Source: Kofleriaceae bacterium (GTDB lineage Bacteria; Myxococcota_A; Polyangia; Haliangiales; Haliangiaceae). Taken from it: DNA of 64,000 nucleotides. Positions 20,076 to 25,905 of this stretch are shown piece after piece. Position numbers and translations under genes: made by a program. The notes beneath the pieces are model-generated. The model saw only the letters and a program-made list of their open reading frames with translations. It was not told where the DNA came from and ran no database searches. Positions within the stretch are counted from its first letter, which is position 1; every line of letters starts with the position of its first letter. Where the stretch lies: positions 1 through 64,000 of the forward strand of contig JBKJLC010000084.1 in the NCBI GenBank assembly GCA_046597055.1, given 5' to 3'.

Positions 20076-20962
20076 ACGTCGGCGCGCTGCTGCGGCTGGT
20101 GCGTCCGCCCAACGTGTTCACCGCGTTCGCGGACGCCCTGGCCGGGCTGCTGGTGCTGCGCGGGCTGGGGCTGGCGGTGCCCGATCGCGCGTGCGCGGTC
20201 GTGCTGGCGTCGGGCTGCCTCTACCTCGCCGGCATCGTGCTCAATGACGTCTTCGACCGGAAGATCGACGCCCTCGAGCGTCCGACCCGGCCGATCCCGA
20301 GTGGCGAGATCCGCGCCGGGTTCGCCGCCGTGCTCGGCTTCGGCCTCATGGCCACCGGCGTGCTGATCGCGGCGTGGATCGGCCGCTCGCCGGGGATCGT
20401 GGCGGCCGCGCTGGCCGGCTCGATCCTGCTCTACGACGCCGGCCTCAAGCACACCAAGCTCGGCCCGCTGGTCATGGGCTCGTGCCGCGGGCTCGACCTC
20501 GCGCTCGCGATCTCGACCGGCCTCTCGCTGGAGTCGAGCTGGCCGGCGATCGCGATCGCCGGGCCATTGGTCCTGGCGCTCTACATCACCGGGCTCACCT
20601 ACATCTCGCGCGACGAGGTCGACGGCAACACCACCCGGCGCGCGCGCACCGGGCTCACGTTCCTGGCCGGACTGGCGGTCGCGGTCGTGGTCGCGCTGAT
20701 CGCGTGCCCGTGCCTGCCGCGGACCGCGTGGGCCTGGCCGTGGGTGGCGCTCGCCATCTTCCTGGGCTGGCGCAACTGGGCGCCGGTGTGGCGCAGCCAC
20801 GACGGTCCCTCGACCGGACGGGCGATCGGCGGCGGCATCATCCTCATCCCCGTGATCGACGCGGCGATCGCGGCGGTCGCCGGCAGCCCGTTCGCGGCGG
20901 TCGCGGTCGCCGGCCTGCTGGTGCCGGCGCTGGTCCTCAAGCAGTTCTTCTCGCCGACATGA
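20072..20962 (+). CDS. eboC: UbiA family prenyltransferase, EboC-like
   Basis: LVRPPNVFTA, LNDVFDRKIDALERPTRPIPSG, YD..LK, MGSCRG; multi-TM; GTGA overlap with ino1. Confidence 0.85.
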   Translation: MNVGALLRLVRPPNVFTAFADALAGLLVLRGLGLAVPDRACAVVLASGCLYLAGIVLNDVFDRKIDALERPTRPIPSGEIRAGFAAVLGFGLMATGVLIAAWIGRSPGIVAAALAGSILLYDAGLKHTKLGPLVMGSCRGLDLALAISTGLSLESSWPAIAIAGPLVLALYITGLTYISRDEVDGNTTRRARTGLTFLAGLAVAVVVALIACPCLPRTAWAWPWVALAIFLGWRNWAPVWRSHDGPSTGRAIGGGIILIPVIDAAIAAVAGSPFAAVAVAGLLVPALVLKQFFSPT

Positions 20963-21807
20963 CCGGCGCGATGCAGCTCGGCTACAACACCAACGGCTTC
21001 GCGCACCACCGCCTGCTCGACGCCCTCGCGGTGATCGCGGAGATCGGCTATCGCGCGGTGGGCCTCACGCTCGACGTCCACCACCTCGACCCGTTCTCGG
21101 CCCGCCACACCGAGGAGCTCGACGACGTCGGCGCGGCCTGCCGCGACCTCGGCCTGGTGCCCGTGATCGAGACCGGCGCCCGGTTCCTGCTCGATCCTCG
21201 CCGCAAGCACCGGCCCACGCTGCTGTCGGCCGACCCGCGCGAGCGCGCGACCCGGATCGACTTCCTGACCATGGCGATCGACGTCGCGGCGGCGGTCGGC
21301 GCGTCGGTGGTGTCGCTGTGGTCGGGCTCGCCCGACGAGGGCGACGCCGCCGCGCCGGCGGCGCTCGACGACCGCCTCGCCGCCGGCCTGCGCGAGGTCT
21401 GCGCGCGGGCGCGCGACGCCGGCATCGTGGTCGGCTTCGAGCCCGAGCCCGGCATGTACCTCGAGGACATGGCCGGCTTCGCGCGGGTGCGGGCGCTGGT
21501 CGAGGACCCGGCGCTGAAGCTGACCCTCGATGTCGGCCACGCCCACATGACCGAGGACGCGGGCGCGGACGCCACCGTGCGCACGTGGGCTGCCGAGATC
21601 GTCAATGTCCACGTCGAGGGCATGCGCCGCACGCTGCATGACCATCTGGTGCCGTGGGAGGGCGACCTCGACGTGCGCGCCGTGCTGCGGACGCTGGGTG
21701 ACGTCGGGTATGCGGGGCCCGCGTGCTTCGAGCTGTCGCGGCATTCGCATGATGCAGCGCGGATCGCCCGGCGCGCGTTCGAGTACGTGACGGCTGCGCC
21801 GGCGTAG
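20959..21807 (+). CDS. sugar phosphate isomerase/epimerase (xylose isomerase-like TIM barrel)
   Basis: GYNTNGF, IETGARFLLDP, FEPEPGM, LDVGH, HDHL..GDLD; ATGA overlap. Confidence 0.88.
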   Translation: MTGAMQLGYNTNGFAHHRLLDALAVIAEIGYRAVGLTLDVHHLDPFSARHTEELDDVGAACRDLGLVPVIETGARFLLDPRRKHRPTLLSADPRERATRIDFLTMAIDVAAAVGASVVSLWSGSPDEGDAAAPAALDDRLAAGLREVCARARDAGIVVGFEPEPGMYLEDMAGFARVRALVEDPALKLTLDVGHAHMTEDAGADATVRTWAAEIVNVHVEGMRRTLHDHLVPWEGDLDVRAVLRTLGDVGYAGPACFELSRHSHDAARIARRAFEYVTAAPA

Positions 21808-21865
21808 CCGAGTCGGTCGTACTGCTGGCGATCCGGGGTCGCGGGCCTGGTGCGGGGACGGGGTC

Positions 21866-22078
21866 GGGGTCGTCGCGGCAGGGCCTGTGGACGCTGGCGC
21901 CGCCGTGGCCAGCCGCGCCTTCGAGGCGAGGACGTTGCCGCGGAAGGGTGCGGGGCGCGCCTGCCCACCGCGGCTTGGATTGCTGCGCCTTCGAGTCGCG
22001 GGGGGCGGCCAGCGGCGAAGGTGGGCGCACCAATCCACAGCGCCCACAGTCCGGTGACTGCCCCTGATCTGTAAAAAC
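21866..22078 (-). repeat. left copy of a ~213-bp structured inverted repeat flanking the HNH gene
   Basis: Reverse complement aligns to 23644-23856 at roughly 85% by manual alignment. Confidence 0.92.
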
Positions 22079-22184
22079 AACAGAGCGCAGAGCTGTCACA
22101 GCGCACGACGGCGCCGACACGGCGAACGTGTTGATCTGCACTCCCGTGCAGGGGATCGTGAGTGTCAGACTGCCATGCTAGTCA

Positions 22185-23462
22185 ATGGTGATGCTCGCCG
22201 AGATGATGGTGTTGGGGGATCGGATTGCGGAGCAGGCGGCGCACCTGGACGCGGCCCTGTTTCGATTGCTGACCGATCTGCGGCAGTTCGATGCGGCCGG
22301 CGGCTGGTACCAGGCGGGCGCGCGCTCGTGCGCACACTGGCTGTCGTGGCGGGTCGGCTGGGATCTCGGGACGGCGCGGGAGCACGTGCGGGTGGCGCGG
22401 CGGCTGGGCGAGTTGCCCAACGTCGGGGCGGAGCTGGAGAAGGGCGCGCTGTCGTACTCGAAGGTCCGTGCGATCACGCGGGTGGCCACGCCGGCCACCG
22501 AAGACTGCCTGGTGCTCTTCGCGCGCAAGACGACCGCGGCACAGCTGGAGAAGATCTGCCGCCAGTACGGGACGGTGCGGCGGCTCGCCGAGAAGGGCGC
22601 GGAGGGCGATCGAGCCCGGCGTCACGTCGGCCGCCGCGATCTGTCGGACGGCATGGTCCGCATCGAAGCGGTCCTGCATCCCGACGAGGCCGCCGTGCTG
22701 TGGGCGGCGATCGAGCGCAGCGCCCGGGACGCTTCCGCGGAAACGTCGGGTACGACCGCCCGGTTCGATCGCGCGGATGGCCTGGTGGCGATGGGGCAAG
22801 CCGTCGTGCGGGGGGAGCGCCCCGAGCGGTCGCCGGTGGAGGTCATCATGACCGTGCCGCGGGAAGCGCTCGCGCTCGACGCGGCCCCGAGCGAGAACCC
22901 GGCCGACCAGCTCGGCTGTCTGACCGACGGTGGACACGTCTCGCCGGAAGGGGCGCGCCGGCTGTGCTGTGACGCCGGCGTGGTCGAGGTCGTCACCGAC
23001 GAGGCGGGGCAGCCCCTGTCGGTCGGTCGCAAGACCCGCACGATCCCGGCGCCGATCAAGCGCGCGCTCCTCCTCCGCGATCAGGGCTGCCGGTTCCCGG
23101 GCTGCACCGATCGCCGGTTCCTCGACGGCCACCACATCCAGCACTGGGCCGACGGGGGCGAGACCTCGCTCGATAACCTCGTGACCGCGTGCAGCCGTCA
23201 TCATCGGTTCGTTCACGAGCACGGCTACCGCGTCGAGCTGCGTGATGGCTTGCCGGTCTTCTTCAATCCGCATGGCGTCGAGGTCCACGCCACCCCGCCG
23301 CGTCCGTCCCTCGGACTGCTGTCCTGGGACTACCTCCGCGAGCTCAATCGCGACCAGGACATCACGGCGCAGACGGGCCAGTGCGAGTGGGACGGGCTCC
23401 CGGTCAACTATGGCTACGTCCTGCAAGACCTGCACTACTACGCCACGCACGACACGCCGTGA
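22185..23462 (+). CDS. DUF222 (13E12-repeat family) HNH endonuclease
   Basis: GARSCAHWLSWR, AREHVRVAR, LSYSKVRAITR, ARRLCCDA, RDQGCRFPGC, HHIQHWADGGETSLDNLVTACSRHHRFVH. Confidence 0.92.
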   Translation: MVMLAEMMVLGDRIAEQAAHLDAALFRLLTDLRQFDAAGGWYQAGARSCAHWLSWRVGWDLGTAREHVRVARRLGELPNVGAELEKGALSYSKVRAITRVATPATEDCLVLFARKTTAAQLEKICRQYGTVRRLAEKGAEGDRARRHVGRRDLSDGMVRIEAVLHPDEAAVLWAAIERSARDASAETSGTTARFDRADGLVAMGQAVVRGERPERSPVEVIMTVPREALALDAAPSENPADQLGCLTDGGHVSPEGARRLCCDAGVVEVVTDEAGQPLSVGRKTRTIPAPIKRALLLRDQGCRFPGCTDRRFLDGHHIQHWADGGETSLDNLVTACSRHHRFVHEHGYRVELRDGLPVFFNPHGVEVHATPPRPSLGLLSWDYLRELNRDQDITAQTGQCEWDGLPVNYGYVLQDLHYYATHDTP

Positions 23463-23480
23463 TCGTCGGCCGTCGGTCCG

Positions 23481-23524
23481 TCGGTCGGTCGGTCGGTCGG
23501 TCGGTCGGTCGGTCGGTCGGTCGG
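23481..23524 (+). repeat. (TCGG)11 microsatellite
   Basis: Eleven perfect TCGG units with degenerate units on both sides, starting 18 nt after the HNH stop. Confidence 0.95.
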
Positions 23525-23643
23525 TCGTGGTCGTCGGACGTCGGTCGCAGCTCCCGGTCGCCGGCGTGGCGGGCCGCGCAAGAGCGCGCTGGTGGTTGGC
23601 CGCTCTGGTTCGATCCAGCACGGCTCTGGTGCTGGTTCGGAAA

Positions 23644-23856
23644 GTTTTTGAAGATCAGGGGTAGTCGCGGCCTGTGGGCTCTGTGGATTGGCGCGCCCAT
23701 CACGCTGCTGCCCACCGCCGGCGCCCCGAAGGCGCGGCAATCCAAGCCGCGGTGGGCAGGCGCGCCCCATCACGCTTCCGCGGAAACCTCCCTCGCCTCG
23801 AAGGCGCGGCTGTCCACGGCGGCGTCAGAGTCCACAGGCCCTGCCGCGACGAGCCC
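23644..23856 (+). repeat. right copy of the ~213-bp structured inverted repeat (candidate ncRNA or ssDNA structure)
   Basis: Stems GGCCTGTGGGCTCTG/CAGAGTCCACAGGCC, GGATTGGCGCGCC/GGCGCGGCAATCC and AGCCGCG/CGCGGCT; compensatory changes relative to the left copy. Confidence 0.92.
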
Positions 23857-23932
23857 TTCGACGTTCACCGCCCGCCTCACACGGGCTGTGAGGGCCAGGC
23901 CGCGTCACGCGGGCCGCGCGGCGCACGCCGCG

Positions 23933-23948
23933 TGGCACAGGCTGTGCT
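23933..23948 (+). promoter_or_regulatory. putative sigma54 -24/-12 promoter
   Basis: TGGCAC-AGGCT-GTGCT, 13 nt before ATG 23961. Confidence 0.5.
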
Positions 23949-23960
23949 TCGACTGGCATC

Positions 23961-24512
23961 ATGCCGCCCATGCACCGCCCGTCGCCCTCGCTGTTGCCGC
24001 TTCTGCTGGTGCTCCTGCCGCTCCTTGCCTGTGACCCCGAGCTTCACCGCATGGCCGTCGCCGCCGAGCGGGTCCCGTGCACCGGCGTGGGCAACCAGAT
24101 GTGTCTACTCGTCACCGATCTCGACCAGGCCGCCGCCACGCCGACGCTCTTCTACGACGGCATCGCGGGCTACCAGCATCAGTGGGGCCGCGCGGTCGAG
24201 ATCGACTATACGCTCGAGTCGATCGACGACCCGCCGGCGGATGGCTCGAGCCAGCGCCGGACGGCCGAGCGCGTCGAGGTGGTCAGCACCGCGGCCGCGG
24301 GTGCCACGTTCACCACGCGCTTTCCGGTCTCGTCCCAGCCCTGGTTCGAGCTCGGCGCGACGGGCGTGGTGCTGATCGATGGCACGCCGGTGGTCAGTCC
24401 CGACGAGCTGCGCGCGCGGGTAGTCGGCCCGCTCGAGCAGGCGCTCGAGGTCGTGATGGCGTACGACGGCGCCGGTGGCCTGGCGCTCCGGTCCGCCACG
24501 AGCGTGCCCTGA
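23961..24512 (+). CDS. DUF4377-like lipoprotein
   Basis: Lipobox LLAC; VPCTGVGNQMCLLV, FYDGIAGY, PPADGSS. Confidence 0.78.
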   Translation: MPPMHRPSPSLLPLLLVLLPLLACDPELHRMAVAAERVPCTGVGNQMCLLVTDLDQAAATPTLFYDGIAGYQHQWGRAVEIDYTLESIDDPPADGSSQRRTAERVEVVSTAAAGATFTTRFPVSSQPWFELGATGVVLIDGTPVVSPDELRARVVGPLEQALEVVMAYDGAGGLALRSATSVP

Positions 24513-24534
24513 CCGAGCACCGTCGCGCGGGCGG

Positions 24535-25905
24535 CTACCGCCGCATCAGGTCGAGGATGAAGCGCTTCACGTCGGTGGCGGCGAACCGGTCGCGGCGCTG
24601 TGAGCCCTCGCTGCAGAGGAGGACCGGGCCCTCGCCGTCGCGCGCGGGCAGCCGGCCGTGTGAGCCCCTGACCCCGCTGGCCTCGATCGGGATCACGTCC
24701 ATCGTGTAGCGGAGGCCGATCGCCTTCTGGGCCAGCCGGAGCGCGGCGCGCACCTTGGCGGTGGGGCCGTCGAACAGCAGCTCGGCCGGATCGTAGCCGG
24801 GCTTGCGGTGGATCTCGACGGTCGGCGCGAAGTCGGGGGCGCGGGCGTCGTCGAGCCAGTAGTAGTAGGTGAACCAGGCCTCGGGATCGGCGACCAGCAC
24901 CAGATCGCCGGCGCGTGGGTGGTCGAGGCCGGCGGCGCGCTTGCCATCGTCTCCCAGAACCTCGGCGACCCCGGGCAGGCCGGTGAGCGCCTCGCGGGCG
25001 CGCGGCAACACCGAGGGATCCGACACGTAGACATGGGCGATCTGGTGATCGGCGACCGCGAAGGCCTTCGACGCGAAGGTGTCGAGCAGCTCGCCGGCCG
25101 GGTTGGTCACGACCTCGAGCAGGCCGGCCTCGCGCAGGCGGCGGTTGACGTGAACCGGGCGATGGACGTCGGTGAGGCCGTACTCCGAGAGGACGACGAC
25201 CTTGGCGCCGGCGGCGCGCACGTGATCGATGAGCGCGCCGGCGACCTGATCGATCGCGGCGGCGGCGGCCTGGGCCTCGAGCCCGCGCGAGCCGAACCGC
25301 TGCAGGTCGTAGTCGAGGTGCGGCAGGTAGACCAGGGTCAGGCTGGGCTGGTGCTGGTCGAAGACGAAGCGGGCGGCCTCGGCGATCCAGCGCGAGCTCG
25401 GCAGGCCGGCCCGCGGCCCCCAGAAGTCGAACAGCGGGAACTCGCCGAGGCGGGTCGCCAGGCGCTCGCCGAGCGAGGCCGGCTGGGTGTAGACGCCCGG
25501 CGACTTGCGTCCGTCGGCGTGGTAGACGGGCCGCGGCGTGACCAGCCAGTCGGTCGACGCGCCCATCGCGTACCACCAGAACAGGTTGGCCACCGTGACG
25601 TCGCTGCCCAGCTCGCGGCGGGCCGCGGTCCACAGCTTGTCGCCGCCGACCAGGCGGTTCGACTGTCGCCACAGCCAGATCTCCGACTGGTCGCGGAAGA
25701 ACCAGCCGTTGCCGACGATGCCGTGCTCGCGCGGCATCGCGCCGGTGAGCAGGGTCGACTGGGCCGAGCAGGTCACCGCCGGCAACACGGTGCCGAGTGG
25801 CGCGCAGAAGCCGGCCGCACCGAGCGCCGACAGGCGGGGCATGTGGAGCAGGAGATCGGGGGTCAGCCCGACCACGTCGATCACGACGACCTGGTTGACA
25901 GTCAT
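24535..25905 (-). CDS. eboF: alkaline phosphatase/nucleotide pyrophosphatase family, EboF-like
   Basis: VIDVVGL, PAVTCSAQ, HGIVGNGW, NLFWWY, YLPHLDY, VADHQIAH, HRKPGYDP, GSHGR. Confidence 0.88.
   Translation of the reverse strand: MTVNQVVVIDVVGLTPDLLLHMPRLSALGAAGFCAPLGTVLPAVTCSAQSTLLTGAMPREHGIVGNGWFFRDQSEIWLWRQSNRLVGGDKLWTAARRELGSDVTVANLFWWYAMGASTDWLVTPRPVYHADGRKSPGVYTQPASLGERLATRLGEFPLFDFWGPRAGLPSSRWIAEAARFVFDQHQPSLTLVYLPHLDYDLQRFGSRGLEAQAAAAAIDQVAGALIDHVRAAGAKVVVLSEYGLTDVHRPVHVNRRLREAGLLEVVTNPAGELLDTFASKAFAVADHQIAHVYVSDPSVLPRAREALTGLPGVAEVLGDDGKRAAGLDHPRAGDLVLVADPEAWFTYYYWLDDARAPDFAPTVEIHRKPGYDPAELLFDGPTAKVRAALRLAQKAIGLRYTMDVIPIEASGVRGSHGRLPARDGEGPVLLCSEGSQRRDRFAATDVKRFILDLMRR

Follow-up and report, generated by a model that had tools for sequence, protein, structure and literature searches.

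A dispersed three-way-junction repeat linked to RayT-like HUH transposase genes, most likely an oversized REP relative, flanks a DUF222-HNH gene in a Kofleriaceae bacterium

Why is a gene for an HNH endonuclease enclosed between two inverted copies of a structured repeat? The question is raised by the first 64,000 nt of contig JBKJLC010000084.1 of a Kofleriaceae bacterium (assembly GCA_046597055.1), the whole stretch of DNA analysed here and referred to as the window. At positions 21866-23856 the window carries a 1,991-bp composite in which one HNH gene lies between two arms of about 215 nt each (21866-22078 and 23644-23856), which are inverted with respect to each other and 87% identical in alignment. 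An earlier note on this DNA had read the arms as a conserved single-stranded fold belonging to no RNA family that it could name. The fold itself stands, and the framing shifts: the repeat belongs to a dispersed set that accompanies genes for RayT-like HUH transposases in soil myxobacteria, and the form in which it acts is no less likely to be single-stranded DNA than RNA. With a confidence somewhat better than even, we regard it as a REP/REPIN-like single-strand-DNA recognition structure, a cis element, of a RayT-type Y1 HUH system in Kofleriaceae-like myxobacteria. It is most likely an oversized, unusual REP relative and not a new RNA gene.

Each arm is predicted to fold into a three-way junction, which is made up of a closing stem P1, a hairpin P2 and a longer hairpin P3, the latter two being alike in sequence, as a direct repeat. 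The composite is built as follows, in window coordinates.

21866-22081, minus strand: left arm, a three-way-junction repeat with its AT-rich 5' end (GTTTTTACAGATCAGGGG) toward the HNH gene
22082-22162: spacer between left arm and HNH gene unit, not present in a repeat-less HNH copy on contig C262 of the same genome, whose homology begins at 22163
22163-23465, plus strand: HNH gene unit, with an open reading frame (ORF) at 22185-23462 for 425 aa, DUF222 plus HNH endonuclease, of the REP13E12-like selfish gene family
23472-23547: (GTCG)20 microsatellite (Tandem Repeats Finder), following the HNH stop codon and preceding the leader of the right arm
23548-23643, plus strand: right-arm leader, with an imperfect hairpin inside at about 23599-23624
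23644-23661, plus strand: conserved AT-rich stretch GTTTTTGAAGATCAGGGG, situated at the fold's 5' foot, where nicking or recognition may take place
23664-23851, plus strand: right-arm folded core, from minimum-free-energy (MFE) and centroid folds, consensus structure and pair counts
23664-23671 with 23844-23851, plus strand: right-arm outer stem
23671-23683 with 23826-23838, plus strand: right-arm P1
23684-23697 with 23731-23744, plus strand: right-arm P2
23741-23747, plus strand: right-arm junction TCCAAGC
about 23747-23767 with 23803-23822, plus strand: right-arm P3

The predicted fold of the right arm has a free energy of -122.2 kcal/mol (z -5.13, with 0 of 200 shuffles as good), and DNA parameters return the same MFE fold (z -6.07); the left-arm fold has a z of -3.03. 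A covariance model of the family matches the right arm at 23641-23862 with 201.3 bits and the left arm, with the same junction fold, at 21860-22081 with 193.7 bits. The extent first proposed, 23664-23850, describes the folded core well, but the homology is longer and covers 23644-23856 and 21866-22078.

Differences between the two arms are concentrated in the loops, as had been noticed from the sequence alone: 5 fall in 92 paired columns and 28 in 118 unpaired columns. Four of the five make up two compensated pairs, and the remaining one turns a G.U into a G.G. The closing stem is compensated from T-A to G-C (GGGCTCTG...CAGAGTCC in the right arm and, as the reverse complement, GGGCGCTG...CAGCGTCC in the left), and the second stem from C-G to T-A (GGATTGGCGCGCC...GGCGCGGCAATCC versus GGATTGGTGCGCC...GGCGCAGCAATCC), both exactly as first described. 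A stem AGCCGCG/CGCGGCT, held to be invariant, is indeed so between the two copies, but its register is unsupported by the family; the register of P3 that covaries is the one in which GCCGCGGTGGGCAG(G)CGCGCC pairs with GGCGCG(G)CTGTCCACGGCGGC. The possible pseudoknot between 23708-23718 and 23749-23759 has to be given up as a conserved feature. Its complementarity of 11 nt is exact here, but one of at least 9 nt is found in just 2 of 43 copies, and in most copies the complementary length is that of shuffled loops.

The wider family carries the argument for the fold. An alignment of 44 distinct copies, taken from 6 genomes of the genus and two other public records of metagenome-assembled genomes (MAGs; loci L050 and L053), was fitted to a model built from 12 copies. 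Paired stem cells amount to 93.5%, against 79.6% in shuffles, double (compensatory) changes occur at 32 of 46 pairs, and the covariation score is 0.313, against 0.089 when shuffled, with 0 of 500 shuffles reaching 0.313. When the partners are slid by 1-3 columns the score is at most 0.039. The signal is also strong in a structure-blind alignment: 37 copies from other genomes, unused in model building and aligned with MAFFT only, again give the P1/P2/P3 junction de novo, with 29 of 53 pairs compensatory. The view of the earlier note that selection acts on a single-stranded fold of about 190 nt is borne out by this covariation, at least in the sense of a structure-preserving process.

The strand on which the fold forms can be read from the mismatches. 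Stems contain 83 G.U against 16 A.C in the 44-copy alignment and 78 against 23 in the independent 37-copy alignment, and one G.U pair in P1 is kept in 34 of the 44 copies. The excess of G.U over A.C indicates that the folding strand is the modelled strand, which has the same sense as the adjacent rayT gene. GTGG tags occur on all three helices: of the 44 copies, 38 carry the motif GT[AG]G at P1, 37 carry it at the P2 foot and 40 at P3. The motif is mostly inside stems, paired to CCAC, and does not form an unpaired foot; 33 and 34 copies have its complement C[TC]AC on the 3' strands. An A/T run plus GATC(A/T)GG is kept at the 5' foot in copies across the genus.

Of four truncated copies that were also seen, three break off either exactly at TCCAAGC, the single-stranded junction that joins P2 to P3, or no more than about 10 nt away from it. 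These truncation points, small in number, hint at a break or recombination site at the junction.

C146:31016-31190, own genome: truncated copy
C259:28264-28381, own genome: truncated copy
L049, 1353-1467 (oriented): truncated copy

The genome from which the window comes is a MAG of 8.38 Mb in 303 contigs. It holds 16 copies by nhmmer, 12 of them full length, and 15 by the covariance model. The copies are 70-90% identical within the genome, and many are situated at contig breaks. They form two subfamilies whose stems differ by compensated blocks: in P2, for example, GGATTGG/CCAATCC in one corresponds to GGAAAGG/CCTTTCC in the other, and in P3 GCCGCGGTGGGCAG corresponds to GCGCCTGTGGGGAG, each with its matching 3' strand. 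Subfamily A is HNH-associated and comprises the two window arms, the right arms on C86, C236 and C146 and the left arms on C4 and C205. All five non-window arms are at contig ends broken within an HNH gene copy, from which it follows that the genome contains at least four HNH composites. Subfamily B is found 84-222 nt upstream of a rayT-like ORF of 241 aa, on the same strand. Leaders homologous to the right-arm leader precede the other A-type right arms as well as the RayT-associated copies; the (GTCG)20 microsatellite is unique to the window composite and missing at three other right arms. Directly before the leader of seven RayT-associated copies of subfamily B (on C119, C144, C48, C285, C259, C146 and C100 of the own genome) there are hexanucleotide arrays, (GGCAGC)n or (GCAGCG)n, of variable length. 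The right arms on C86 (563-1300), C236 and C146 share about 100-300 nt of homology beyond the arm, which the window copy lacks; this reflects either a longer composite there or a duplicated context.

In five related genomes the covariance model gives 10, 12, 1, 12 and 3 matches and recovers full-length copies, and it also recovers copies beside rayT genes in two further genomes. The distribution beyond the genus comes from one exact-pattern scan of one genome per species, which gave 10 loci: 7 in one Kofleriaceae bacterium MAG and 1 each in MAGs titled Myxococcales, Proteobacteria and Vicinamibacterales. The 2,585-bp contig of the Vicinamibacterales-titled MAG (L050) carries the element and a rayT-like gene typical of Kofleriaceae-like genomes, and is probably mis-binned. 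A blastn search of plasmid and phage collections with the whole composite, in 'distant' mode, gave no match. No RNA run was found among the sequencing runs that contain the sequence, and contigs from 4 DNA runs placed over 20800-24900 yielded short unitigs, none with an informative joint across the element.

The neighbouring 241-aa ORF links the element to a known class of enzymes. It matches Pfam Y1_Tnp with an E value of 3.2e-8 (34.2 bits, above the cutoff of 23); against the NCBIfam models it scores 35.8 for REP_Tyr_transpos (E 6.6e-9), below the cutoff of 80, and 23.2 for IS200, below the cutoff of 55. At E <=1e-5 it has at least 2,586 matches among database proteins, many of them named 'REP element-mobilizing transposase RayT' by JGI, and H93 and H95 of the HUH motif as well as Y161 are invariant in 25 aligned homologues. 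With the single RayT-like protein as query no PDB match was found at E <=0.01, and a profile search of PDB brought up only ISDra2 TnpA, weakly similar over the HUH region (E 0.11). The gene is multi-copy, with matches on 12 contigs and at least 10 genes in the own genome; in 14 of 17 genus genomes it has 2-25 matches each.

How close the linkage is can be judged from 45 tabulated copies. A RayT-like ORF lies within 300 nt on the same strand at 16 of them and on the opposite strand at 2 more; an HNH gene is present within 200 nt at 6. In the 16 same-strand cases the element is upstream of the ORF 11 times and downstream 5 times; overall, elements upstream of a rayT-like gene are 70-280 nt away from it, and those downstream about 50 nt. 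The 5 downstream copies all belong to one genome and are placed 44-65 nt past the rayT stop codon. In the genome with elements on both sides of rayT genes, the upstream-type copies are preceded by remnants of a rayT 3' end, and at one locus there is a half element upstream and a full element downstream of the gene. The homology that units of element plus rayT have in common is sharply bounded, and downstream of the rayT genes in the own genome the homology stops at the stop codon.

Elements are also paired with each other. Of 20 further rayT loci, from well-assembled relatives, 7 have a same-strand element 110-260 nt upstream, and 6 of these 7 have a second, antisense copy about 115 nt away, head-to-head with the first. 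At two loci, L096 (G016:C13) and L099 (G006:C51), divergent rayT-like genes around the head-to-head doublet make up a palindromic locus of about 2.3 kb. Altogether 14 head-to-head doublets were found in 5 related genomes, always with the 5' ends facing. The window pair is additional to these, and its composite has the form of a head-to-head doublet with the HNH gene unit at the centre. Between the element and the ATG of rayT there is a sigma-70-like promoter with an extended -10 (TTGACG-16-TATTAT, 10/12 matches, 0.0 expected by chance), located as follows.

L008, 1340-1367, minus strand: rayT promoter, ending about 14 nt before the ATG
L010, 1374-1401, minus strand: rayT promoter, ending about 40 nt before the ATG

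With these distances the mRNA leader should be short, and since the promoter is downstream of the element, the element falls outside the 5' leader of transcripts begun there.

The repeat is not specific to the HNH gene at the centre of the window composite. The product of that gene contains DUF222 (Pfam E 5.7e-21) and HNH (E 1.2e-7) domains. A full-length DUF222-HNH copy with 86% aa identity occurs in the own genome (C262:19036-20313) without flanking structured repeats; it is homologous to the window over 22163-23465 and no further, from 22 nt before the ATG to the stop codon, so that gene and repeats are separable. DUF222-like/HNH genes adjoin the leader side of the element in two other genus genomes (35% identity over 112 aa, E 2e-11; HNH domain E 1e-9). 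The element is present at 2 of 80 metagenomic loci that code for relatives of the HNH protein; these two carry one and the same element (99.5% identity), and the nearest relatives, with 71-75% identity, are without it. Inverted similarity of the flanks was seen at 2 of 44 HNH loci with both flanks available, and the inverted 160-nt flanks of one HNH homologue (L147) showed no unusual structure (z 0.06 and -0.97). The HNH link recurs; it is not a property of the whole HNH family. The most plausible view of the gene is that of a selfish passenger, or a homing gene, that has settled in the centre of a doublet.

A minimal version of the junction, 144 nt long, is found in a metagenomic lineage of 59% GC (L121, 2395-2538, minus strand, and L172). 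It has the same junction sequences, and its P2 and P3 are capped by C-GCA-G triloops (z -6.62 as DNA); triloops of the GNA type have a particular stability in DNA. The minimal copy follows closely downstream of an HNH homologue with 43% identity, and an identical inverted 45-nt partial copy is found upstream of that gene. Even this minimal variant is still about 110-144 nt in size.

On the basis of these observations, it is possible to sketch how a REP-like element of this kind may work. When single-stranded, the DNA strand that is collinear with the neighbouring rayT gene would fold into a Y-shaped three-way junction. A RayT-like enzyme may recognise this Y structure and nick nearby, the candidate sites being TCCAAGC, which is invariant and single-stranded at the junction, and GTTTTT..GATCAGGG, the AT-rich motif of the foot. 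Elements usually stand as head-to-head doublets beside rayT genes, and in the window a selfish DUF222-HNH gene occupies the centre of such a doublet, which gives the appearance of two flanking repeats. Fold, covariation, strand bias, linkage to rayT and HNH genes and the multi-copy state are observed directly; an action as DNA rather than RNA, binding and cutting by RayT and movement of the composite are what we infer from them.

Could the fold instead be that of a structured non-coding RNA, in a 3' untranslated region or standing alone, that would serve the HNH or RayT protein nearby as a guide, scaffold, stabiliser or regulator? The depth of the covariation, the conserved junction sequences, the G.U pair kept in most copies and the clear strand preference would all suit an RNA, and co-transcription is possible both at the five loci of one relative, where the element follows the rayT stop codon on the coding strand, and in the window, where the right arm begins 182 nt past the HNH stop codon. 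Against this, a cmscan of 21500-24200 against Rfam gave only 3 weak, unrelated matches even at E <=10, of which the best, mir-341 on the (GTCG)20 microsatellite (25 bits, with a gathering score of 90), is spurious. Promoter-like or terminator-like sites were not found flanking the window copies, and the rayT promoter is downstream of the element. The left arm is antisense to the HNH gene, the doublets place one copy antisense to the adjacent rayT, and, with arms in both orientations, at most one can be sense to the HNH transcript. The HNH protein is without the hallmarks of RNA-guided IscB. The neighbouring enzyme family is established to work on single-stranded DNA hairpins (PMC6006769). The RNA explanation is serious but unlikely. 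The REP-like explanation draws on those hairpin substrates, on the GTGG tags, the doublets and the strand-specific linkage to rayT, and on the position of the element upstream of the rayT promoter, the lack of promoter or terminator signals of its own and the two orientations around the HNH gene. A second explanation makes the repeats the terminal inverted repeats, or a preferred homing target, of a DUF222-HNH (REP13E12-like) element, so that the RayT linkage would be secondary. The composites of the own genome speak for it (that of the window, with 3 further right arms and 2 further left arms at contig ends), as do the HNH/DUF222-like genes by the leader side in two other genus genomes and the homologue flanked by the minimal copy and its inverted partial counterpart. 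The scarcity of the element at metagenomic HNH loci and among the closest relatives, the repeat-less copy on C262 and the fact that most copies have no HNH gene nearby and many a rayT gene argue against it, and we find it rather improbable. Yet more doubtful is a decayed or domesticated palindromic repeat with a host role as proposed for REP/BIME, such as an insulator, mRNA 3' protection or a site for a nucleoid protein or gyrase, with no current mobility implied. The identity of 70-90% within the genome, short of near-identity, suggests old duplications under purifying selection, and the window arms and the copies beside rayT genes, which are those checked, lie between genes. Such roles do not need a tight, strand-specific linkage to multi-copy rayT, the element-rayT units have sharp boundaries, and many copies are at contig breaks, as is typical of mobile repeats.

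Several points weigh against the REP-like reading itself. No rayT gene was found next to the two arms of the window. The covariation tests carry no phylogeny correction, and hairpin-templated repair could give compensated changes without functional selection; the conserved G.U pair and the junction nucleotides are equally suited to RNA. In the own genome the stretches downstream of the rayT genes showed no structure that matches the element, so that a left and right end pair of IS200 type is not apparent there. Classical REPs occur in tens to hundreds of copies with a single rayT. The present element is low in copy number, with 16 elements and at least 10 rayT-like genes in the own genome, and this ratio of about 1:1 to a multi-copy rayT argues against full REP membership, as does a size of about 200 nt with three helices, roughly ten times that of a REP. 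As for insertion, IS200/IS605 elements go in 3' of a specific tetra- or pentanucleotide and leave no target duplication. At the ends of the window composite no target duplication is evident on sequence inspection, and the sole orthologue of the downstream DUF4377 gene in 17 genus genomes is 33% identical, too distant to define insertion boundaries by an empty site.

Two more novel readings can be formulated. It could be imagined that the element is a three-armed bacterial counterpart of the T-shaped terminal hairpins of parvoviruses: a Y1 HUH nuclease would nick the foot or the junction, and doublets would delimit segments, here the HNH gene, which a hairpin-primed or single-strand process unlike the peel-and-paste of IS200/IS605 would copy or move. 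We consider this a long shot. In the other reading, the fold would serve DUF222-HNH or RayT proteins as an RNA partner.

Some candidates were tried and set aside. A self-cleaving ribozyme was rejected, as no Rfam ribozyme family matched. An integron attC-like site was dismissed because the copies are inverted and not direct, and the Pfam-checked genes beside the arms include no tyrosine recombinase (integrase), no search having been aimed at one. An IscB/HEARO system, which would call for a protein with RuvC, bridge helix and HNH beside an omega-RNA, was discarded with a guided_IscB score of 23.2 bits against a cutoff of 175, confined to the HNH region, and no HEARO match.

If the REP-like reading is right, the element would extend a familiar theme. 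REP sequences with RayT are a well-studied case of domesticated single-strand-DNA transposition, with short hairpins, huge copy numbers and one enzyme gene. Here a rayT-type gene is multi-copy and stands approximately one-to-one with a large three-armed structure that co-varies across a genus, and doublets of this structure can enclose a selfish nuclease gene. Recognition of the three-way junction by the enzyme would widen the substrate range of Y1 HUH nucleases, and the whole would offer a tractable system between insertion sequences and REPINs. There is also a caution for those who search for RNA motifs, since a DNA-level element can show covariation as strong as that of a bona fide RNA.

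Comparison with known systems shows where the element fits and where it departs. With HEARO/IscB omega-RNA it shares a structured element adjoining an HNH-domain gene on a mobile unit; it differs in the absence of an Rfam match, in an HNH protein without a RuvC domain and in being mainly rayT-linked. The REP13E12 or DUF222-HNH elements of mycobacteria resemble the cargo, a multi-copy gene with DUF222 and HNH in a selfish unit, whereas most relatives of the window HNH gene are without the repeat; we know of no report of structured inverted repeats in REP13E12 elements. 'REP13E12/HNH endonuclease/DUF222' is listed among repetitive elements in PMC10589994. The inverted terminal repeats of parvoviruses such as AAV are likewise three-armed, with two small palindromes within a larger one and a non-palindromic inner segment by the stem, and they flank a gene in inverted copies and are associated with a nuclease of the HUH superfamily. 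Those repeats are T-shaped hairpins nicked by the HUH Rep protein. The present element, on the other hand, is chromosomal and bacterial, its HUH gene lies outside the doublet, and there is neither a helicase domain nor evidence of a linear replicon on its side.

The IS200/IS605 family (IS608, ISDra2), whose subterminal hairpins are recognised on one of the two DNA strands, likewise has a Y1 HUH transposase, multi-copy units of gene plus structure with sharp homology boundaries and the structure on the strand of the gene, and ISDra2 TnpA gives the weak profile match around the HUH motif. Unlike the simple imperfect hairpins of this family, the element is a large three-way junction; a second, right-end structure was not found in the own genome, the NCBIfam IS200 score is below cutoff, and head-to-head doublets are not an IS200/IS605 feature. 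Where IS200/IS605 elements have same-strand subterminal hairpins at two ends, the own genome has the structure upstream only, and one relative has it upstream, downstream or, at the one locus with an upstream half, on both sides.

The REP/REPIN-RAYT systems remain the nearest comparison. No described REP or non-coding RNA family was found that matches the element, but in kind it resembles REP/REPIN. Literature searches on RAYT in Myxococcota, judged by title or abstract among the papers listed, and on 13E12 HNH repeats gave no description of it, and myxobacterial and related terms do not occur in PMC6006769. That paper defines the canonical REP by a 5' GT[AG]G at its hairpin foot and describes 'double-foot' long REPs and REPtron arrangements. 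The element differs from these systems in its length and its three helices, where a REP is a hairpin of 20-40 nt, in occurring about once per copy of a multi-copy rayT instead of tens to hundreds of times per single rayT, in having its GTGG tags mostly within stems and in the REP_Tyr_transpos score, which is below cutoff. What it has in common with them is a palindromic, structure-conserving repeat beside a Y1 HUH rayT-type gene, with GT[AG]G tags on its hairpins, a strand-specific fold and inverted doublets that are comparable to REPINs.
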